Shown one piece after another: positions 1 through 8,897 of a stretch of DNA of 8,897 bases (the first letter of the stretch is position 1; each line of letters begins with the position of its first letter). The notes beneath the pieces were generated by a model that worked only from the letters and a program-made list of their open reading frames with translations, was not told where the DNA came from and did not search any database. The DNA comes from a virus (Duplodnaviria; Heunggongvirae; Uroviricota; Caudoviricetes). The stretch lies in the IMG/VR virus record IMGVR_UViG_2671180852_000010; one strand, given 5' to 3'. Made by a program: the position numbers and the translations under genes.

Positions 1-46
1 TAAAAAAAGAACAAATGGTAGTGTCCGCTATTGCCAGTACACCTCA
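1..46 (+). mobile_element. Right terminus of an IS3-family insertion sequence whose body lies upstream of the window; bases 1-3 correspond to the orfB stop codon
   Basis: Bases 1-46 are identical to 5138-5183, which directly follow the transposase OrfB stop (TAA 5138-5140) of the internal IS copy. The segment ends in ...CCTCA, matching the 5'-TG...CA-3' ends typical of IS3-family elements. The exact end is uncertain by a few bp. Confidence 0.45.
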
Positions 47-245
47 TCCATCACCGAAAAAAATTGGCTTTTACACCATTGGCGATAAAAGCATTTACCT
101 GTATGACCTACGCCGCATGGATGAAATCATGGAGGCTCTTGATAATCGTTCGTCGATGGATTGGTGTGTTGCTGTTCATGATATGAATGCAGGGTTTGAT
201 GAAAAGATTTTGTTCCCCTCATCAGTTGAAAGCACTGCGGGTTAA
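47..245 (+). pseudogene. 3' fragment of an unidentified gene, apparently interrupted by the IS insertion (about 66 codons ending ...FPSSVESTAG)
   Basis: The frame is open from inside the IS terminus through to TAA at 243-245. The ATG at 15 reported in the ORF track lies inside the presumed IS terminal sequence, so the 76-aa ORF is probably chimeric. No family recognised. Confidence 0.3.
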
Positions 246-255
246 GGAGTAACAC

Positions 256-423
256 ATGACCACTATTACCAAAGAACGTATTGAATTGTTCATTAAAAAC
301 CCGCTTGAAAACGGGCTTACCCGTGGTGAACAAATGGAACTGGCACGGATTGCGCTGGCATCGCTGGAAGCAGAGCCGGTTGTGTTCTGGTTTGAAAAAT
401 ATCAAGAAGGGGCTACGGCATGA
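256..423 (+). CDS. Hypothetical 55-aa protein ([12 protein letters not shown]...), short paralog of the N-terminal half of the next ORF
   Basis: ATG at 256 preceded by AAGGAG (244-249). The stop TGA 421-423 overlaps the next start ATG 420-422 (ATGA). Shares the MTT(I/F)T(K/R)E start, the IAL(A/V)SL(E/A)AEP motif and FEKYQEG versus HEYKPVG with ORF 420-764. It falls below the ORF-track length cutoff. Confidence 0.5.
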
Positions 424-764
424 CGACTTTTACCAGAGAGCAGTTAATAGCTCACGCAGAGGAGACTATTGAAGCACAGAGACTGTGCATACCGGGCACA
501 ATCGACCATGACATCATCCGCACATATAAGATGGATATTGCTGTTCTGGAAATCGCACTGGTATCGCTGGCAGCAGAGCCAGCCGGTAAATTGCATGAAT
601 ACAAACCAGTGGGATATCAGCGTCTGGTCGATGAGTTAACCATGCTGGTAAAGCAGTTAACCTGGCAACTGAGGAAAGCGAAGCCAGACTGCAAATTACC
701 GGATAAGGCGATGAGTTATCTGGAGCGGAACGGACTGATAAGCGTGGAGGATATTTTACGATGA
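420..764 (+). CDS. Hypothetical 114-aa protein ([15 protein letters not shown]...), family not recognised
   Basis: Translationally coupled to both neighbours by ATGA overlaps at 420-423 and 761-764. Paralogous to the preceding 55-aa ORF. An identical copy lies at 5557-5901. Confidence 0.6.
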
Positions 765-844
765 CCTGGCCTGAAGCATTAACAACGGTAGGAATTGCGA
801 TGGCGGTGGCGCTGGTGGTGTATTCGATTTGCCGCTGGGGATAA
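761..844 (+). CDS. 27-aa hydrophobic mini-protein ([27 protein letters not shown]), predicted single transmembrane helix
   Basis: ATG 761 overlaps the upstream stop (ATGA); TAA at 842-844. The hydrophobic core is flanked by W/R residues. It is short enough that the call is tentative. Confidence 0.3.
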
Positions 845-1055
845 AAACGGTTTGCGGGAAAAGGAGAGTTAAGTAGAATTGCAGCGGGTGCTTGAGGCTA
901 TCTGTCTCAGGCATGAACACCAAAAGGCAGATAGAGAAAAGCCCCAGTTAACATTACGCGTCCGGCAAGACGCTTAACATTAATCTGAGGCTCAATCTAT
1001 GAACGGCAAATCTAGGTTAGCCTCTTACGTGCCGAAAGGCAAGGAGAAGCAGGCT

Positions 1056-1211
1056 ATGAAGCAGCAAAAGGCGATGTTAATCGCCCTGATCGTCATCTGT
1101 TTAACCGTCATAGTGACGGCACTGGTAACGAGGAAAGACCTCTGCGAGGTACGAATTCGAACCGGCCAGACGGAGGTCGCTGTCTTCACAGCTTACGAAC
1201 CTGAGGAGTAA
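1056..1211 (+). CDS. hokD: Hok/Gef-family type I toxin, 51 aa (MKQQKAMLIALIVICLTVIVTALVTRKDLCEVRIRTGQTEVAVFTAYEPEE)
   Basis: The translation matches the Hok/Gef family signature (single transmembrane helix, TRKDLCEV motif, C-terminal periplasmic tail) and matches my recollection of E. coli K-12 HokD. AAGGAG at 1041-1046 lies 9 nt before the ATG. The downstream order rem, ydfU, Q fits the Qin prophage context. The ORF track extends this frame upstream to ATG 999 (70 aa). Confidence 0.85.
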   Translation: MKQQKAMLIALIVICLTVIVTALVTRKDLCEVRIRTGQTEVAVFTAYEPEE

Positions 1212-1281
1212 GAGACCAGGCGGGGGAGAAATCCCTCGCCACCTCTGATGGGTCAGGCATCCTCAATGCACCCACACTTAA

Positions 1282-1306
1282 CCCGCTTCGGCGGGTTTTT
1301 GTTTTT
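1282..1306 (+). terminator. Rho-independent terminator-like hairpin downstream of hok
   Basis: Stem CCCGC (1282-1286), loop TTCG, stem GCGGG (1291-1295), followed by TTTTTGTTTTT. Confidence 0.6.
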
Positions 1307-1319
1307 ATTTTCAACGCGT

Positions 1320-1349
1320 TTGAAGTTTTAGATGGTGCCGGAATAGAAT
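1320..1349 (+). promoter_or_regulatory. Candidate sigma70 promoter upstream of the rem-ydfU-rusA-Q gene string
   Basis: TTGAAG (1320-1325), 18-nt spacer, TAGAAT (1344-1349). Both hexamers are retained at 6457-6486 in module 2 even though the surrounding sequence has diverged. Confidence 0.3.
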
Positions 1350-1428
1350 CAAAAATACTTAAGTAGCGCGCAGGGAGAAGAGGGATGGACCCCGAACAGG
1401 GGAGTGCTATTTATCTGGAAGGATTCTG

Positions 1429-1787
1429 TTGATGAAAATCGAAGAATTACGTGAAATTTTTAGTGAAGATGGCCTCTATACTGTGCGCGTTGAGAATGGC
1501 GCTATTGTCAGCCACTGCCTTCCAGACTACACAATTCTGATAATTCAGCCGTCTTTGCCAGCAGGCACGGGCGGCGCTCTCACGCATTTAAATCTGATTG
1601 GTACCAGCATCCCCCATGCACTGAAGAACAGGCCGAATGGCTCATTCAGTGTTACCGCAGGCGCGGATGCGAGGTTAAAAAAGCCCTTAGCCTCGACTAC
1701 CGTCACTGGATAATCTCCGTCAGGCTCCCTTACTCCGAACGGCCAACGCGTCCGTCCCGCACATTCCAGCAACGGATCTGGAGGTAA
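1429..1787 (+). pseudogene. Deletion-disrupted region: rem 5' portion fused out of frame to the start-less 3' portion of the homolog of the module-2 92-aa ORF
   Basis: Module 1 is about 238 bp shorter than module 2 between the rem start and the ydfU start. ORF 1429-1713 has a Rem-like N-terminus (MMKIEELREIF...VENGAIVSH) and then reads the downstream gene in the wrong frame. The correct frame of that gene (ending TAA 1785-1787) has no ATG/GTG/TTG start after the stop at 1491-1493. Confidence 0.5.
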
Positions 1788-1788
1788 T

Positions 1789-2847
1789 GTGCGGGTATTA
1801 CTTCGACCTGTTCTGGTACCGGAACTCGGTCTGGTTATCGTTAAGCCAGGCCGTGAATCAATGTCAGCATTCCATAACGGCAGAATACTGGTGGAGCCGG
1901 AACCAAAAAGCATGCGTAATCTGCCGTCCGGGGTCGTTCCTGCCGCTCGCCAGCCGCTGGTGGAAGACAAAACATTGCTGCCGTTTTTCAGTAACGCACG
2001 GGTGATTCGTGCTGCTGGTGGTGCTGGTGCATTGTCTGACTGGCTGTTGCGCCATATTAAATCCTGCCAGTGGCCACACGGCGATTATCATCACAGCGAA
2101 ACCGTCATTCACCGTTATGGTACCGGCGCAATGGTGTTGTGCTGGCACTGCGACAACCAGCTGCGTGACCAGACATCCGAATCACTCGAGCAACTTGCTC
2201 ATCAAAACCTGTCAGCATGGATGATTGACGTCATCGGTCACGCAATAAGCGGTACGCAGGAGCGTGAATTATCTCTGGCTGAATTATCCTGGTGGGCGGT
2301 CCGCAATCAGGTGGCGGACGCGCTACCGGAAGCGGTATTACGTCGTTCGCTGGGGTTGCGTGCGGAAAAAATTCGCTCTGTGTACAGTGAAAGCGACATC
2401 ATACCGGGAGAGCAGACAGCCACCAGCATACTGAAGCAGCGCACAAAAAATATTGCGTTACTGCCTCACGTCCACCAGCAACAGAACCCACCACAGGAAA
2501 AGACGGTGGTCAGCATTGCCGTTGATCCGGAGTCACCGGCTCAGTATCTCCAGCGCCAGAAATCACAACGGGAAGAGATGCCTGTATACACGCGCTGGGT
2601 AAAAACGCAGAAATGCATGACGTGTGGCAATCAGGCAGATGATCCGCATCACATCATTGGTCATGGACTGGGAGGGATGGGAACAAAGGCTGATGATTTG
2701 TTTGTTATTCCGTTATGCCGTAAATGCCGTAACGAACTACATGCCGGAGTAAAAGATTTTGAAGAGAAACACGGCAGTCAGCTGTTGTTGCTGATTCGTT
2801 TTTTAATGCACGCGAGAAATTCGGGTGTTCTGAAGTGGAAAGCATAA
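1789..2847 (+). CDS. ydfU: YdfU-like DUF968 prophage protein, 352 aa, with a C-terminal HNH-like Cys/His motif
   Basis: GTG start at 1789 with GGAGG 5 nt upstream. C-terminal CMTCGNQADDPHH...LCRKCRNELH. Paralog at 7163-8209. Its position between rem and Q matches Qin ydfU. Confidence 0.8.
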   Translation: MRVLLRPVLVPELGLVIVKPGRESMSAFHNGRILVEPEPKSMRNLPSGVVPAARQPLVEDKTLLPFFSNARVIRAAGGAGALSDWLLRHIKSCQWPHGDYHHSETVIHRYGTGAMVLCWHCDNQLRDQTSESLEQLAHQNLSAWMIDVIGHAISGTQERELSLAELSWWAVRNQVADALPEAVLRRSLGLRAEKIRSVYSESDIIPGEQTATSILKQRTKNIALLPHVHQQQNPPQEKTVVSIAVDPESPAQYLQRQKSQREEMPVYTRWVKTQKCMTCGNQADDPHHIIGHGLGGMGTKADDLFVIPLCRKCRNELHAGVKDFEEKHGSQLLLLIRFLMHARNSGVLKWKA

Positions 2848-3228
2848 ATGACCGAGCGCATAGAATTTGTTTTACCTTACCCGCCGACGGTGAACACTTA
2901 CTGGCGTCGTCGTGGCAGCACATATTTTGTATCAAAAGCCGGGGAGCGTTATCGCCGGGCAGTGGCGCTTATTGTTCGCCAGCAGCGGCTGAAATTAAGC
3001 CTGTCCGGAAGGTTGGCAATAAAAATTATTGCAGAACCACCGGATAAGCGCCGCCGTGACCTGGACAATATTCTGAAAGCGCCGCTGGATGCGCTGACGC
3101 ATGCGGGGTTGCTAATGGACGATGAGCAGTTTGATGAAATCAATATCGTTCGTGCTCAGCCAGTATCTGGTGGACGTCTGGGGGTGAAGATTTATCCCAT
3201 AATGCTTGAAGGGCAGGTCAAAAAATGA
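2848..3228 (+). CDS. rusA: RusA-family Holliday junction resolvase (crossover junction endodeoxyribonuclease), 126 aa
   Basis: PDKRRRDLDNILKAPLDALTHAGLLMDDEQ matches the RusA catalytic-core pattern (K-12 RusA has [30 protein letters not shown]). The stop overlaps the Q start (ATGA at 3225-3228). Confidence 0.85.
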   Translation: MTERIEFVLPYPPTVNTYWRRRGSTYFVSKAGERYRRAVALIVRQQRLKLSLSGRLAIKIIAEPPDKRRRDLDNILKAPLDALTHAGLLMDDEQFDEINIVRAQPVSGGRLGVKIYPIMLEGQVKK

Positions 3229-4286
3229 AACTGGAAGATTTACCGAAATACTACTCCCCAAAATCCCCCGGCCTGACTGATGCATCGGCCTCAACGTCGA
3301 AAGATGCGCTGAGTATCACTGATGTGATGGCCGCGCAGGGCATGACACAGAATCGGGCTGAGATGGGGGTTTCTGCGTTCCTTGGGAAAATGGGCATTAG
3401 TATGAATGACAGAGAGCGGGCAACAGAATTGCTGACAGAATATGCACTCAGTCGGTGTGATCGCGTGGCGGCGTTAAGAAAACTCCCGGCAGAAATAAAA
3501 CCGGCAGTGATGCGTATTATGGCTTCGTATGCGTTTGAAGATTATGCCCGTAGCGCGGCGAGCAAAAAACAGTGCCCCTGCTGTCACGGAAAAAAATTTA
3601 TTGAAAGCGAGGTTTTTACAAACAAGATCCAGTATCCGGATGGTAAGCCGCCGGTATGGGCAAAGTGTACGAAAGGTGTGTATCCGTCTTACTGGGAAGA
3701 ATGGAAAAAAGTCAGGGAGGTGGTAAAAGTTGCCTGTCCGGAGTGTGGCGGAAAGGGTGAGGTTTCCACCGCCTGTAAGGATTGCCGTGGGCGTGGTGTC
3801 GCCATTCATCGTGAAGAGTCGGTAAAACGTGGTATGCCTGTTATCAGAGACTGCCAGCGTTGTGGTGGTCGTGGCTATGAAAGACTACCATCAACGGAGG
3901 CATTTAATGCTATATGCGAGGTGACAAACCAGATAACACGCGCGTCATGGGAAAAAACAGTTAAGAAATTTTATGATGCGCTGGTGACCCGGTTTGATAT
4001 TGAAGAAGCATGGGCTGAGCGGCAGTTAAAAAAGGTAACTAGGTATGAAAATCAACTTTCGATCAGTGAAGGCGCTTCCCGATTATCTCTTCCTGAAGGC
4101 ACTTTAGGACAATGGGTTACCGCCGCAAGAAAAGGGCTCAATACACCAGGCTCCCGCACAGTGGCTGAGCTGGAATCTGAAGTTATGCAACTGCGTAAGG
4201 CTTTAAATGAAGCACGACTTGAGCGAGATATATTAAAAAAAGCAACAGCGTATTTTGCACAGGAGTCGCTGAAAAATACGCGTTAA
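3225..4286 (+). CDS. Chimeric ORF: Q-type late antiterminator (about aa 1-274) joined in frame to the C-terminal part of an IS3-family OrfA (from about aa 275)
   Basis: The N-terminal 270 aa or so are about 95% identical to the partial Q' at 8593-8897 and carry four CxxC pairs. From about nt 4047 the translation (ENQLSISEGASRLSLPEGTLGQWV...ERDILKKATAYFAQESLKNTR) is a typical IS3-family OrfA helix-turn-helix and leucine-zipper C-terminus that lacks its own N-terminus. Confidence 0.7.
   Translation: MKLEDLPKYYSPKSPGLTDASASTSKDALSITDVMAAQGMTQNRAEMGVSAFLGKMGISMNDRERATELLTEYALSRCDRVAALRKLPAEIKPAVMRIMASYAFEDYARSAASKKQCPCCHGKKFIESEVFTNKIQYPDGKPPVWAKCTKGVYPSYWEEWKKVREVVKVACPECGGKGEVSTACKDCRGRGVAIHREESVKRGMPVIRDCQRCGGRGYERLPSTEAFNAICEVTNQITRASWEKTVKKFYDALVTRFDIEEAWAERQLKKVTRYENQLSISEGASRLSLPEGTLGQWVTAARKGLNTPGSRTVAELESEVMQLRKALNEARLERDILKKATAYFAQESLKNTR
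4235..4241 (+). other. Candidate programmed -1 ribosomal frameshift heptamer A AAA AAA (followed by G) for OrfAB fusion synthesis
   Basis: Heptamer in the OrfA zero frame (TTA AAA AAA GCA). The -1 frame is open from here into OrfB (KKSNSVFCTGVAEKYALIEQWRQQFPIEAMCQVFGVSRSGYY...). A 9-bp stem-loop begins 6 nt downstream (4248-4256 pairing with 4273-4281). Confidence 0.5.
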
Positions 4287-4321
4287 TCGAACAATGGCGA
4301 CAACAATTTCCCATTGAAGCG

Positions 4322-5140
4322 ATGTGTCAGGTATTTGGTGTATCCAGGAGCGGTTATTACAACTGGGTACAGCATGAACCCTCAGACAGAAAACAAAGTG
4401 ATGAGCGGCTAAAACTGGAGATTAAGGTGGCACATATCCGCACTCGCGAAACATATGGAACCCGGCGGCTCCAGACGGAGCTGGCAGAGAATGGCATCAT
4501 CGTTGGTCGTGACCGACTGGCACGTCTTCGTAAGGAGCTAAGGCTACGCTGTAAGCAGAAACGCAAGTTCAGAGCGACTACGAACTCGAACCACAATCTG
4601 CCAGTTGCGCCAAATCTGCTGAACCAGACGTTCGCTCCTACAGCACCAAATCAGGTCTGGGTGGCGGACCTGACGTATGTTGCCACACAGGAGGGATGGT
4701 TGTACCTCGCTGGCATCAAAGATGTTTATACGTGCGAAATTGTCGGCTACGCCATGGGAGAGCGCATGACAAAAGAGCTGACAGGTAAAGCCCTGTTTAT
4801 GGCGCTCAGGAGCCAGCGCCCACCTGCCGGGCTAATCCACCACTCTGATCGAGGTTCACAGTACTGCGCATACGATTACCGGGTCATACAGGAGCAGTCT
4901 GGTCTGAAAACATCAATGTCGCGTAAAGGTAACTGTTACGACAACGCTCCGATGGAAAGCTTCTGGGGAACGCTGAAAAATGAGAGCCTGAGCCACTATC
5001 GTTTTAATAACCGGGATGAAGCCATCTCAGTAATACGGGAATACATTGAGATTTTCTACAATCGTCAGCGTCGTCACTCTCGTCTGGGGAATATCTCCCC
5101 GGCAGCCTTCAGGGAAAAATATCATCAGATGGCTGCTTAA
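4322..5140 (+). CDS. IS3-family transposase OrfB (DDE / rve integrase core); the coordinates are the standalone ORF, which in vivo is probably made as an OrfAB frameshift product
   Basis: Conserved IS3-family OrfB features: VWVADLTYV, HSDRGSQY, a KGNCYDNAPMESFWGTLK segment containing the catalytic E, and a C-terminal YNRQRRHSRLGNISP. It is in the -1 frame relative to OrfA. Confidence 0.85.
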   Translation: MCQVFGVSRSGYYNWVQHEPSDRKQSDERLKLEIKVAHIRTRETYGTRRLQTELAENGIIVGRDRLARLRKELRLRCKQKRKFRATTNSNHNLPVAPNLLNQTFAPTAPNQVWVADLTYVATQEGWLYLAGIKDVYTCEIVGYAMGERMTKELTGKALFMALRSQRPPAGLIHHSDRGSQYCAYDYRVIQEQSGLKTSMSRKGNCYDNAPMESFWGTLKNESLSHYRFNNRDEAISVIREYIEIFYNRQRRHSRLGNISPAAFREKYHQMAA

Positions 5141-5183
5141 AAAAAGAACAAATGGTAGTGTCCGCTATTGCCAGTACACCTCA

Positions 5184-5382
5184 TCCATCACCGAAAAAAA
5201 TTGGCTTTTACACCATTGGCGATAAAAGCATTTACCTGTATGACCTACGCCGCATGGATGAAATCATGGAGGCTCTTGATAATCGTTCGTCGATGGATTG
5301 GTGTGTTGCTGTTCATGATATGAATGCAGGGTTTGATGAAAAGATTTTGTTCCCCTCATCAGTTGAAAGCACTGCGGGTTAA
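5184..5382 (+). pseudogene. Second copy of the 3' fragment of the IS-interrupted gene (identical to 47-245)
   Basis: Identical sequence directly downstream of the IS right end. Confidence 0.3.
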
Positions 5383-5392
5383 GGAGTAACAC

Positions 5393-5560
5393 ATGACCAC
5401 TATTACCAAAGAACGTATTGAATTGTTCATTAAAAACCCGCTTGAAAACGGGCTTACCCGTGGTGAACAAATGGAACTGGCACGGATTGCGCTGGCATCG
5501 CTGGAAGCAGAGCCGGTTGTGTTCTGGTTTGAAAAATATCAAGAAGGGGCTACGGCATGA
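5393..5560 (+). CDS. Hypothetical 55-aa protein, identical copy of 256-423
   Basis: Identical sequence, with AAGGAG upstream and an ATGA overlap with the next gene. Confidence 0.5.
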
Positions 5561-5901
5561 CGACTTTTACCAGAGAGCAGTTAATAGCTCACGCAGAGGA
5601 GACTATTGAAGCACAGAGACTGTGCATACCGGGCACAATCGACCATGACATCATCCGCACATATAAGATGGATATTGCTGTTCTGGAAATCGCACTGGTA
5701 TCGCTGGCAGCAGAGCCAGCCGGTAAATTGCATGAATACAAACCAGTGGGATATCAGCGTCTGGTCGATGAGTTAACCATGCTGGTAAAGCAGTTAACCT
5801 GGCAACTGAGGAAAGCGAAGCCAGACTGCAAATTACCGGATAAGGCGATGAGTTATCTGGAGCGGAACGGACTGATAAGCGTGGAGGATATTTTACGATG
5901 A
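5557..5901 (+). CDS. Hypothetical 114-aa protein, identical copy of 420-764
   Basis: Identical translation in the ORF track. Confidence 0.6.
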
Positions 5902-5981
5902 CCTGGCCTGAAGCATTAACAACGGTAGGAATTGCGATGGCGGTGGCGCTGGTGGTGTATTCGATTTGCCGCTGGGGATAA
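5898..5981 (+). CDS. 27-aa hydrophobic mini-protein, identical copy of 761-844
   Basis: Identical sequence, with an ATGA overlap with the upstream gene. Confidence 0.3.
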
Positions 5982-6192
5982 AAACGGTTTGCGGGAAAAG
6001 GAGAGTTAAGTAGAATTGCAGCGGGTGCTTGAGGCTATCTGTCTCAGGCATGAACACCAAAAGGCAGATAGAGAAAAGCCCCAGTTAACATTACGCGTCC
6101 GGCAAGACGCTTAACATTAATCTGAGGCTCAATCTATGAACGGCAAATCTAGGTTAGCCTCTTACGTGCCGAAAGGCAAGGAGAAGCAGGCT

Positions 6193-6348
6193 ATGAAGCA
6201 GCAAAAGGCGATGTTAATCGCCCTGATCGTCATCTGTTTAACCGTCATAGTGACGGCACTGGTAACGAGGAAAGACCTCTGCGAGGTACGAATTCGAACC
6301 GGCCAGACGGAGGTCGCTGTCTTCACAGCTTACGAACCTGAGGAGTAA
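6193..6348 (+). CDS. hokD: Hok/Gef-family type I toxin, identical second copy
   Basis: Identical to 1056-1211. Confidence 0.85.
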   Translation: MKQQKAMLIALIVICLTVIVTALVTRKDLCEVRIRTGQTEVAVFTAYEPEE

Positions 6349-6418
6349 GAGACCCGGCGAGGGAGAAATCCCTCGCCACCTCTGATGTGGCAGGCATTCT
6401 CAACGCACCCGCACTTAA

Positions 6419-6443
6419 CCCGCTTCGGCGGGTTTTTGTTTTT
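6419..6443 (+). terminator. Rho-independent terminator-like hairpin downstream of hok copy 2
   Basis: Same CCCGC-TTCG-GCGGG stem-loop followed by a T-run, in sequence that has otherwise started to diverge between modules. Confidence 0.6.
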
Positions 6444-6456
6444 ATTTTCAACGCAT

Positions 6457-6486
6457 TTGAAGTTCTGGACGGTGCCGGAATAGAAT
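6457..6486 (+). promoter_or_regulatory. Candidate sigma70 promoter, module-2 copy
   Basis: TTGAAG, 18-nt spacer, TAGAAT, conserved with 1320-1349. Confidence 0.3.
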
Positions 6487-6564
6487 CAAAAATACTTAAG
6501 TAGCGCGCAGGGATAAGAGGGATGGTCCCTTAAAGGGGAGAGCTAATTATCCGGAAGGATTCTG

Positions 6565-6816
6565 ATGATGAACATCGAAGAACTGCGTAAAATTTTTTGT
6601 GAAGATGGCCTCTATGCTGTGTGCGTTGAAAATGGAAATATTGTTAGTCATTACCGCATTGTGTGTTTGCAAAAAAATGGGGCTGCGTTAATTAATTTTG
6701 TGGATGCCCGAGTGACGGACGGATTTATCTTGCGCGACGGTGAGTTTGTCACTTCATTACAGGTATTGAAAGAGATCGGAATAAAAGCTGGCTTTTCTGC
6801 TTTTTCAGAAGAATAA
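6565..6816 (+). CDS. rem: Rem-like small prophage protein, 83 aa, intact
   Basis: Its length and its position between hokD and ydfU fit E. coli Qin rem. GGAAGG lies upstream of tandem ATG ATG. Assigned by context and recollection, not by search. Confidence 0.55.
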   Translation: MMNIEELRKIFCEDGLYAVCVENGNIVSHYRIVCLQKNGAALINFVDARVTDGFILRDGEFVTSLQVLKEIGIKAGFSAFSEE

Positions 6817-6882
6817 ACTCATCTACAATCTTGCGCGGGGCTGAACTCCCGCTGAGTAACACCGTGCCACCGGAGAAAACCG

Positions 6883-7161
6883 ATGGCACGCAACGCAAAA
6901 TATTACAAACATGATAATTCGACCGTTCTTGCCCACACGCACGAGCGGTATTCTCACGCATTTAAGTCAGACTGGTACCAGCATCCCCCATGCACTGAAG
7001 AACAGGCCGAATGGCTCATTCAGTGTTACCGCAGGCGCGGATGCGAGGTTAAAAAAGCCCTTAGCCTCGACTACCGTCACTGGATAATCTCCGTCAGGCT
7101 TCCTTACTCTGAACGCCCACCGCGTCCGTCCCGCACATTCCAGCAACGCATCTGGAGGTAA
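6883..7161 (+). CDS. Hypothetical 92-aa protein (MARNAKYYKHDNST...), family not recognised
   Basis: GGAG lies upstream of the ATG. The stop TAA 7159-7161 directly abuts the ydfU' GTG start. Most differences from the module-1 homologous segment are synonymous in this frame (aag/aaa, tca/tct, gac/gat, ctt/ctc, tct/tcc, cgc/cgg), which supports it as a real coding frame. Confidence 0.6.
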   Translation: MARNAKYYKHDNSTVLAHTHERYSHAFKSDWYQHPPCTEEQAEWLIQCYRRRGCEVKKALSLDYRHWIISVRLPYSERPPRPSRTFQQRIWR

Positions 7162-7162
7162 C

Positions 7163-8209
7163 GTGCGGGTATTACTTCGACCTGTTCTGGTACCGGAACT
7201 CGGGCTGGTGATCGTTAAGCCGGGCCGTGAATCCATGCCGGTATTCCACAATACCCGGGTACTGGTGGAGCCGGAACCGAAAAGCATGCGTAATCTGCCG
7301 TCCGGGGTCGTTCCTGCCGTTCGCCAGCCGCTGGCGGAGGATAAATCATTACTGCCATTTTTCAGCGACGAACGAGTGATTCGTGCTGCTGGTGGCGCTG
7401 GCGCATTGTCTGACTGGTTACTGCGCCATGTTAAATCCTGCCAGTGGCCACACGGCGATTATCACCACAGTGAAACCGTCATTCACCGTTATGGTACCGG
7501 CGCAATGGTGTTGTGCTGGCACTGCGACAACCAGCTGCGCGACCAGACCTCCGAATCACTCGGGCAACTTGCTCACCAAAACCTGTCTGCATGGATGATT
7601 GACGTCATACGCCATGCAATGAATGGCTCGCAGGAACGGGAATTATCGCTGGCTGAATTATCCTGGTGGGCGGTCCGCAATCAGGTGGCGGACGCGCTAC
7701 CGGAAGCGGTATTATGTCGTTCGCTGGGGTTGCGTGCGGAAAAAATCCGCTCAATGTACCGTGAAAGCGACATCGTACCGGGAGAGCAGACCGCCACCAG
7801 CATACTGAAGCAGCGCACAAAAAATCTTGCGCCGCTGCCTCACGCCCACCAGCAAAACCCGCCACAGGAAGAGACGGTGGTCAGCATTGCCGTTGATCCT
7901 GAGTCTCCGGAATCTTTCATGAAACGACCTAAACGTCGCCGCTGGGTTAACGAGAAATACACACGCTGGGTGAAGACACAGCCGTGTGCGTGTTGTGGTA
8001 AGCCAGCCGACGATCCCCATCACCTGATTGGTCATGGTCAGGGCGGAATGGGGACAAAATCTCACGATATTTTCACGCTACCGCTGTGTCGGGAGCATCA
8101 CAACGAGCTTCATGCGGATCCTCTGGCGTTCGAAGAAAAGCATGGTTCTCAGGTTGATTTAATTTTTCGTTTTCTTGATCACGCCTTTGCAACTGGCGTG
8201 CTTGGGTAA
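7163..8209 (+). CDS. ydfU: YdfU-like DUF968 protein, 348 aa, diverged paralog of 1789-2847
   Basis: GTG start. The N-terminal two-thirds are about 90% identical to module 1. The C-terminal motif is CACCGKPADDPHH...LCREHHNELH, and the extreme C-terminus is divergent. Confidence 0.8.
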   Translation: MRVLLRPVLVPELGLVIVKPGRESMPVFHNTRVLVEPEPKSMRNLPSGVVPAVRQPLAEDKSLLPFFSDERVIRAAGGAGALSDWLLRHVKSCQWPHGDYHHSETVIHRYGTGAMVLCWHCDNQLRDQTSESLGQLAHQNLSAWMIDVIRHAMNGSQERELSLAELSWWAVRNQVADALPEAVLCRSLGLRAEKIRSMYRESDIVPGEQTATSILKQRTKNLAPLPHAHQQNPPQEETVVSIAVDPESPESFMKRPKRRRWVNEKYTRWVKTQPCACCGKPADDPHHLIGHGQGGMGTKSHDIFTLPLCREHHNELHADPLAFEEKHGSQVDLIFRFLDHAFATGVLG

Positions 8210-8221
8210 AAGAGGTGACTG

Positions 8222-8596
8222 ATGCTCATAGATTTGGTTTTACCTTACCCGCCGACGGTGAACACTTACTGGCGACGCCGTGGCAGCACATATTTTATCT
8301 CGGAGGAGGGAAAGCGTTATCGCCGGGCTGTGGCGCTTATTGTTCGCCAGCAGCGGCTGAAATTAAGCCTGTCCGGAAGGCTGGCGATAAAGGTGATTGC
8401 AGAGCCACCGGATAAGCGTCGTCGCGACCTGGACAATATCCTGAAAGCACCGCTGGATGCGCTGACGCATGCGGGAGTGTTAATGGACGATGAGCAGTTT
8501 GATGAAATCAATATCGTTCGTGGTCAGCCAGTATCTGGTGGACGTATGGGGGTGAAGATTTACCCCATAATGCATGAAGAGCAGGTCAAAAAATGA
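8222..8596 (+). CDS. rusA: RusA-family Holliday junction resolvase, 124 aa, paralog of 2848-3228
   Basis: Same conserved core. AAGAGG lies upstream of the ATG. The stop overlaps the Q' start (ATGA). Confidence 0.85.
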   Translation: MLIDLVLPYPPTVNTYWRRRGSTYFISEEGKRYRRAVALIVRQQRLKLSLSGRLAIKVIAEPPDKRRRDLDNILKAPLDALTHAGVLMDDEQFDEINIVRGQPVSGGRMGVKIYPIMHEEQVKK

Positions 8597-8897
8597 AACT
8601 GGAAGATTTACCGAAATACTACTCCCCAAAATCCCCTTGCCTGACCGATGCATCGGCCTCAACGTCAAAAGATGCGCTGAGTATCACTGATGTGATGGCC
8701 GCGCAGGGCATGACACAGAATCGGGCTGAGATGGGGTTTTCTGCGTTCCTGGGGAAAATGGGCATCAGTATGAATGACAGGGCGCGGGCAACAGAATTAC
8801 TGGCAGATTATGCACTCAGTCGGTGCGATCGTGTGGCGGCGTTGAGAAAACTTCCGGCAGAAATAAAACCGGTAGTGATGCGCATTATGGCTTCGTA
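8593..8897 (+). CDS. Q-type antiterminator, 5' portion only (the ORF runs off the window end)
   Basis: ATG 8593; the translation MKLEDLPKYYSPKSPCLTDASASTSKDALSITDVMAAQG... is about 95% identical to Q at 3225. Absent from the ORF track because there is no stop within the window. Confidence 0.75.
   Translation, partial: MKLEDLPKYYSPKSPCLTDASASTSKDALSITDVMAAQGMTQNRAEMGFSAFLGKMGISMNDRARATELLADYALSRCDRVAALRKLPAEIKPVVMRIMAS

Follow-up and report, generated by a model that had tools for sequence, protein, structure and literature searches.

Within the DNA stretch of 8,897 nucleotides (nt) studied here (IMG/VR virus record IMGVR_UViG_2671180852_000010, Caudoviricetes; below, the window means this stretch at its full length), the gene of a lambda-type antitermination protein Q runs, without a stop codon of its own, into the insertion sequence (IS) IS600. 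The Q gene is complete: the break lies inside its stop codon, and what follows is an IS600 copy devoid of its left end. We consider it probable, at roughly 70%, that we are dealing with a structural rearrangement peculiar to one strain, which affected the remnant of a lambdoid prophage, riddled with IS, on a chromosome of Shigella (sonnei-type). In this case the apparent "Q-transposase fusion" would be a complete Q with a clipped stop codon in an otherwise standard Shigella prophage remnant, and would matter mainly for annotation.

According to the list of open reading frames (ORFs) and the self-comparison of the window, two copies of the lambdoid nin-to-Q gene set are arranged in tandem, the gene order in each of these modules being small genes, hok/sok, the DUF968/HNH gene, rusA, and Q. 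Module 1 (47-4045) is separated from module 2 (5184-8897), which leaves the window inside its own Q gene, by the IS3-family element (4046-5183).

The Q gene and its joint with IS600

An earlier note on this stretch, made from the sequence alone, had described a Q ORF lacking a natural stop and continuing in frame into orfA as a chimera of 353 amino acids (aa). This description proved to be correct: the ORF at 3225-4286 encodes 353 aa, beginning with Q and ending in IS600 OrfA. Its Q part (window 3225-4045) is 98.1% identical over 821 nt to Q genes of E. coli and 100% identical to those of Shigella-type loci. In the closest E. coli homologue, annotated as an antitermination protein (locus L002, 4001-4822), the product has 273 residues and ends with ...ERQLKKVTR, followed by TAA. 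The same end in the window reads ...AAG GTA ACT AGG TA/T GAA AAT (the slash marks the break), i.e. 273 sense codons are followed by two bases of the stop codon, and the third base, the only one lost, is substituted by nt 127 of IS600 (TAA to TAT). In the protein collection, at least 1000 contigs carry the exact 273-residue sequence, which goes by such names as 'antitermination protein [Shigella sonnei]' and MULTISPECIES [Shigella].

The Q ORF matches the Pfam family PF03589 (Antiterm) with 178.6 bits against a cut-off of 26.7, and in a phmmer comparison with lambda Q (PDB 7UBM) it is collinear with the latter from end to end (E = 9.8e-41), residues 1-122 and 182-273 being aligned to lambda Q residues 1-123 and 116-207. 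The final VTR is common to both proteins (...AVTR in lambda). The earlier suggestion that the C-terminus of Q had been replaced is thus contradicted, all 273 residues being present and identical to the Shigella sonnei antitermination protein. As for the reading in which Q is C-terminally truncated, its end is replaced by IS sequence and its function is lost together with its own residues, we give it practically no credence: the homologues are of 273 aa and terminate in ...ERQLKKVTR-TAA, the lambda end ...AVTR is aligned with this terminus, and the window has 273 codons. Judging from the sequence, the protein would be neither truncated nor replaced but lengthened by 80 residues, namely one tyrosine and OrfA residues 22-100.

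Apart from its collinearity with lambda Q (PF03589; PDB 4MO1, 7UBM/7UBN), including the C-terminal ...VTR, the window gene resembles its counterparts in lambdoid phages in its position after rusA in a nin-type region, and nearly identical Q genes are present in phages such as mEp460. It differs from lambda Q by a 59-residue insert, the destroyed stop codon, the 80 foreign residues and the lack of a downstream late-promoter region. The insert occupies Q residues 123-181 (window 3591-3767) and carries extra CxxCxGxG zinc-knuckle motifs, the DnaJ_CXXCXGXG match in it scoring below the cut-off; the insert-bearing 273-aa form of Q is common in enterobacterial prophages and is also that of mEp460.

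In intact relatives, Q is followed by approximately 570 nt with terminator-like hairpins, then by a methyltransferase gene and the late genes. In the window, the position directly 3' of Q is taken by nt 127 of IS600 and the usual late region is gone from there, in agreement with the earlier statement that the region normally following Q is displaced. A late promoter was not detected by a simple scan, even in the intact relative.

The breakpoint could be fixed to the nucleotide. In the E. coli, phage and plasmid searches, every Q match ends at window position 4045 and every IS match starts at 4046, and the matches on both sides of the junction (E = 0) are far beyond chance. Alignment to full-length Q homologues, which had been proposed as a check of the approximate breakpoint (about 4047), therefore places it at 4045/4046, where the second base of the Q stop codon abuts nt 127 of IS600 in the frame of orfA. 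The search for microhomology, proposed as well, gave a negative answer: on comparison of both parental sequences, 0 bp of microhomology and no shared homology or k-mer were found at the breakpoint. The junction peptide of the Q-OrfA' chimera is ...KVTRYENQLSISEGASR. The reading frames also permit the longer Q-OrfAB fusion that had been foreseen for a working frameshift site, as orfB, situated past the run of seven adenines (A7), is in the -1 frame; a -1 slip at this run (4235-4241) would yield a Q-OrfAB' product of 638 aa. We looked as well for the two findings that could overturn the notion of a chimera, i.e. Q homologues naturally possessing such a C-terminal extension or a complete IS in the window; the full-length homologues end with ...VTR-stop, and the IS is incomplete.

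Outside the window the junction was not encountered. It was found neither in 5,426 complete E. coli genomes, none of which covers 80% of the query 3225-5183, nor in phage and plasmid records, nor in species-representative genomes searched with a 32-mer and a 20-mer. Five matches to the junction in JGI metagenomes are all bare 20-mer matches, attributable to chance. An exact look-up of the 353-aa chimera in a collection of 15 billion proteins gave nothing, and in the homology search with it all proteins were matched within the Q part alone. The one longer match, P0001, was considered as a possible fusion and rejected, being an internally duplicated Q.

The truncated IS600 and the ancestral locus

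Window region 4046-5183 is 98.8-99.4% identical to IS600 over 1138 nt, the matching features being annotated as 'IS3-like element IS600 family transposase'. Taking as the reference an intact IS600 of 1264 nt (locus L006, 5936-7199), we found that the window copy starts at nt 127. The missing 126 nt comprise the left inverted repeat, the 64-nt leader, the first 20 codons of orfA and two bases of codon 21, which confirms the earlier observation that OrfA lacks its start and about 20 codons and that the left inverted repeat is absent. Even when 3 mismatches were tolerated, the latter was found nowhere in the window. At 5183 the element retains an intact right end (...CACCTCA) and so has, as had been stated, one end only. 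The match of OrfA' to HTH_Tnp_1 starts at position 16 of the 75 positions of the profile, i.e. the first 15 positions are missing and the helix-turn-helix is cut. Target duplication was not found either: the left flank (...AGGTA) and the right one (TCCATC...) are unrelated and originate from different loci. Hence, of the features by which an IS600 copy is recognized, sequence identity of at least 95% is present, while the pair of inverted repeats and the flanking target duplication are not.

As for the coding parts, orfA is without its start and codons 1-21, orfB with its rve domain is intact, as is the A7 site, and the intact IS600 copy carries the annotation 'programmed frameshift'. The window element shares with IS600 the orfA/orfB pair, the A7 site of -1 frameshifting, the rve DDE domain and the right inverted repeat, and differs from it by the absence of nt 1-126, by an allelic mosaic structure and by the loss of autonomy. 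It should be unable to transpose by itself because it has one end only and because the leader and the start of orfA are lost; orfA' should be translatable only as a tail on Q. The C-terminal helical part of OrfA, retained in the chimera, mediates multimerization of OrfA and OrfAB in the related element IS911.

The ancestral state of the locus can be judged from twelve Shigella-type (sonnei-type) chromosomal loci (L006, L010 and L052-L061), found by look-up of the neighboring proteins (both RusA, both DUF968, the 114-aa protein and the Rem-like protein), which match window positions 1-4045 at 99.9-100%, most of them without a mismatch. In 12 of 12 the upstream IS600 is complete, Q is of 273 aa with its stop codon, and the DNA downstream of it is normal; the neighboring-protein look-ups gave standard, unfused arrangements only. 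The first 46 nt of the window are continuous with the full IS600 in L006 and the 11 other loci. In these relatives the prophage is already decayed: the early region has been lost or inverted, and there are interruptions by IS1 and by additional copies of IS600.

On the right side of the truncated element, the junction 5183/5184 is identical to the junction 46/47, and the corresponding empty sites were found in L013 (5212/5213) and L050 (284/285). The right end of IS600 has thus stayed in place, and the empty sites show that it goes back to an old insertion of IS600 into an 87-aa phage gene. In L050 (CP026832.1), the prophage at 285-5333 is collinear with window positions 5184-8897, with an identity of about 99.3%. 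The 5183 site is free of IS600 there; instead, the 114-aa gene harbors an IS2-like element (ORFs of 121 and 301 aa). The IS600 located before module 1 is flanked on its left, among Shigella-type genomes (L056, L057, and L058 versus L006), by at least four different sequences, a sign that IS600 has repeatedly mediated inversions or translocations here. Many E. coli genomes, O104:H4 strains and strain 55989 among them, have an IS30 element within the matching IS600, so that it is matched as two pieces about 1.2 kb apart.

The truncated copy itself is not uniform. Thirteen sites, in a cluster at 4127-4217, set it apart from the IS600 located beside module 1 in all 12 related genomes. Region 4046-4488 shows 100% identity to an IS600 allele of the S. 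flexneri plasmid pINV, and region 4218-5183 shows it to the chromosomal allele. The element is thus an allelic mosaic of pINV-type and chromosomal alleles, and the 13-site patch suggests that copies of IS600 have recombined or undergone gene conversion. A cut at nt 127 was looked for in the 26 other IS600 copies of the fetched loci and was seen in none.

Possible origin and significance of the junction

The earlier note had regarded the internal IS joint as something other than a simple insertion, and our data agree with this, as the left end and a target duplication are lacking and the flank does not consist of Q-downstream DNA; since, moreover, the right flank is the ancestral flank of IS600, simple insertion was rejected. 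The deletion or illegitimate recombination invoked instead stands as far as the homology-free nature of the join is concerned; the exact repeat, the mosaic IS and the switch in hok make the history more than a single deletion. We also considered a plain tandem duplication of an L006-like ancestor. Taken alone, it would account for both the join and the perfect 1217-nt repeat, which consists of the IS600 end and the left part of the module (1171 nt of flank, including hok/sok). As the whole story it was rejected, in view of the 13-site patch in the IS and of the lower identity of the two modules (83-92%) beyond 6354. Positions 6295-8637, for their part, are 100% identical to a second type of Shigella prophage (L016/L021). 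Because module 2 matches module 1 up to 6354 and the second type from 6295 on, a homologous switch is located in the 3' end of hok.

The rearrangement that we favor, as the most economical history, would seem to need at least three events. An illegitimate join may have connected the Q stop codon with nt 127 of a pINV-type IS600. The element may have recombined, by homology within IS600 (somewhere in 4218-4488), with the copy preceding module 1; such IS600-IS600 recombination would result in an IS-bounded tandem repeat, hence the perfect repeat of 1217 nt. Finally, a homologous exchange at hok (6295-6354) with the second, roughly 92%-identical prophage would bring in the rest of module 2. The outcome would be a tandem of two prophage modules with 90% identity to each other. 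The events may also have followed one another in a different order, and the first join may have been either a deletion or a duplication.

Several considerations weigh against this scenario. The DNA to the left of position 1 and to the right of position 8897 is unseen, which makes any order of events guesswork. The junction is unique in all the collections searched, a fact that fits a rare variant and an artefact equally well, and the path switches other than the Q-IS join lie inside repeats, as would be the case with an assembly error. Besides, the in-frame placement of the join exactly in the stop codon is an unexplained coincidence, for which we found no mechanism; it is a striking one, but it was noticed post hoc.

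Assembly artefact, i.e. a chimeric read or a mis-join after which the contig path wandered between prophages through repeats (IS600, hok), seems unlikely to us. Besides the absence of the junction from every collection searched, it would be favored by the 100% identity of each segment to known Shigella sequence, by the location of the other two switches (4218-4488 and 6295-6354) in repeats, and by the match of the 5' part of the IS to the plasmid (pINV) allele. However, the two sides of the Q-IS join have no homology or k-mer in common, so an error of the assembly graph or a repeat collapse cannot produce it, and a chimeric read would have to be carried into the consensus. As for the switches located in repeats, homologous recombination in vivo gives them equally well, and Shigella is known for such variation (PMC7373316). 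Anyway, unique junctions of this kind call for validation at the level of reads.

An event mediated by the IS600 transposase, in which the internal TGA... at nt 127 stood in for the left end and was joined to the Q stop codon through pseudo-end transposition or adjacent deletion, is highly improbable. Ends of IS3-family elements start with TG, and the truncated IS starts with TGAAAAT, which has TGA in common with the true left end TGAGGT. Past the TGA, however, the internal sequence is unlike the inverted repeat, and the right end still resides on its ancestral flank; the lack of a target duplication and of Q-downstream DNA on the far side indicates that no excised or circular IS was inserted. 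The lack of a cut at nt 127 in the 26 other copies of the fetched loci also speaks against it, and IS3 elements, which move by copy-out-paste-in, are not known to cause adjacent deletions.

We regard as very unlikely that the chimera was selected for a function of Q-OrfA' or Q-OrfAB', such as damping of IS600 transposition through the OrfA coiled coil or alteration of Q. The fusion does preserve, in frame, the whole of Q and the C-terminal four-fifths of OrfA, with the frameshift site and orfB intact. Yet none of the searches revealed the fusion in another genome, as compared to at least 1000 contigs with the unfused state; the prophage is a remnant without an early region in all relatives, which makes Q expression doubtful; and the helix-turn-helix of OrfA is cut.

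Returning to the rearrangement in a Shigella prophage remnant, we find parallels for its parts. IS600 is one of five insertion sequences expanded in all Shigella species, where they create strain-to-strain variation (Hawkey et al., 2020, PMC7373316). The IS600 copy neighboring module 1, with its several left flanks among genomes, conforms to this picture, whereas the Q-IS join, formed without an IS end or homology, differs from the typical rearrangements, which are insertions or IS-IS homologous recombination. In the Shigella dysenteriae type 1 strain Sd1617, an IS600 with truncated orfA is located upstream of stx (PMC7819885). The defective Stx prophage of S. dysenteriae type 1 is, like the one discussed here, a decayed lambdoid prophage with IS600 copies; the window differs from it in having no stx genes and in that its repeat junction is a truncated IS illegitimately joined to Q, not two complete flanking IS. 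The junction appears to be new, while the type of event (IS-associated rearrangement with fusion or pseudogene formation in Shigella prophage remnants) is well documented. The locus provides a clean example of how a homology-free junction, together with IS600-IS600 and prophage-prophage exchange, can set two diverged modules in tandem.

As to the consequences, the prophage being dead, the fusion ORF most likely represents no adapted protein but a neutral by-product. Transcription of the module 1 Q gene (Q1) is doubtful because the prophage remnant in related genomes has no intact early region; the Q gene of module 2 (Q2) is presumably accompanied by its own late region beyond the window. The fusion would be of interest only if it were expressed and affected IS600 activity or late transcription. 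It is hardly to be expected that the fusion is made and that its OrfA coiled coil binds the OrfA/OrfAB encoded by the many other IS600 copies, so as to act as dominant-negative on transposition or to tether them to Q-modified transcription complexes. If it were nevertheless true, i.e. if the fusion were an expressed regulatory protein, the in-frame junction precise to the stop codon would reflect selection rather than chance.

Layout of the window and minor observations

The features discussed above are collected in Table 1. Pfam searches of the window ORFs gave Antiterm (PF03589) and a partial HTH_Tnp_1 for the 353-aa ORF, rve for orfB, DUF968, and Hok. The Rfam scan of the window detected sok only (twice) and no family of frameshift elements. 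A full-length counterpart of Q2, which lies 4.5 kb beyond Q1, is available in L016, and 254 of its 273 residues (93%) are identical to those of Q1.

Table 1. Coordinates of the features in the window.
Feature	Position	Strand	Basis or remark
Last 46 nt (nt 1219-1264) of the upstream IS600 copy	1-46	+	Identical to 5138-5183; window starts inside the element
Module 1, lambdoid prophage remnant (split 87-aa gene remnant, 55-aa and 114-aa genes, hok/sok)	47-3224	+	ORFs, Pfam, Rfam
DUF968/HNH gene, module 1	1789-2847	+	ORF list, Pfam
rusA, module 1	2848-3228	+	ORF list
Q antiterminator gene (lambda-Q family, PF03589), 273 sense codons, all present	3225-4043	+	Pfam, alignment to lambda Q
Junction codon TAT (Tyr): TA from Q stop TAA, T from IS600 nt 127	4044-4046	+	Three-way alignment
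IS600 nt 127-1264, without left inverted repeat, leader and orfA start; right end intact	4046-5183	+	
orfA', codons 22-100 and stop, in the Q frame	4047-4286	+	
Patch of 13 substitutions versus the chromosomal IS600 allele beside module 1	4127-4217	+	
A7 slippery run (TTA AAA AAA G), IS3-type -1 frameshift site from orfA' to orfB	4235-4241	+	
orfB, 272 aa from ATG, rve DDE integrase core	4322-5140	+	-1 frame relative to Q-orfA'
IS600 right inverted repeat	5157-5183	+	Flank junction 5183/5184 same as 46/47
Perfect direct repeat (1217 nt) of window 1-1217	5138-6354	+	First difference at 1218/6355
Switch interval between module 1 type and second prophage type, hok 3' end	6295-6354	+	
Rest of module 2: Rem-like gene, 92-aa gene, DUF968 (7163-8209), rusA (8222-8596)	6355-8592	+	
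Second Q gene (Q2), 5' part	8593-8897	+	Runs off the window

The two hok/sok loci (886-1211 and 6023-6348) are identical; each encodes a 70-aa Hok/Mok ORF and contains a sok RNA (RF01794, 112 bits each; the Rfam sok match in the first locus is at 886-1061). Another duplicated feature is a 76-aa ORF (15-245 and 5152-5382), whose ATG lies inside the right inverted repeat of IS600 and which continues in frame into the 3' two-thirds of the 87-aa phage gene split by IS600; in Shigella genomes this ORF is annotated as a gene (e.g. L006, 7168-7398).

Between the modules, about 238 nt of module 2 are missing from module 1 (window 1429-1713 versus 6565-6911). This deletion removed the 3' part of the Rem-like gene (83 aa, PF27490 in relatives) and left a fused 94-aa ORF in module 1. 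The C-terminal part of the DUF968/HNH gene together with the following spacer is about 60% identical between the modules (2540-2850 versus 7910-8215), in contrast to 85-98% in the flanks, and this divergence is a mosaic boundary typical of lambdoid phages.

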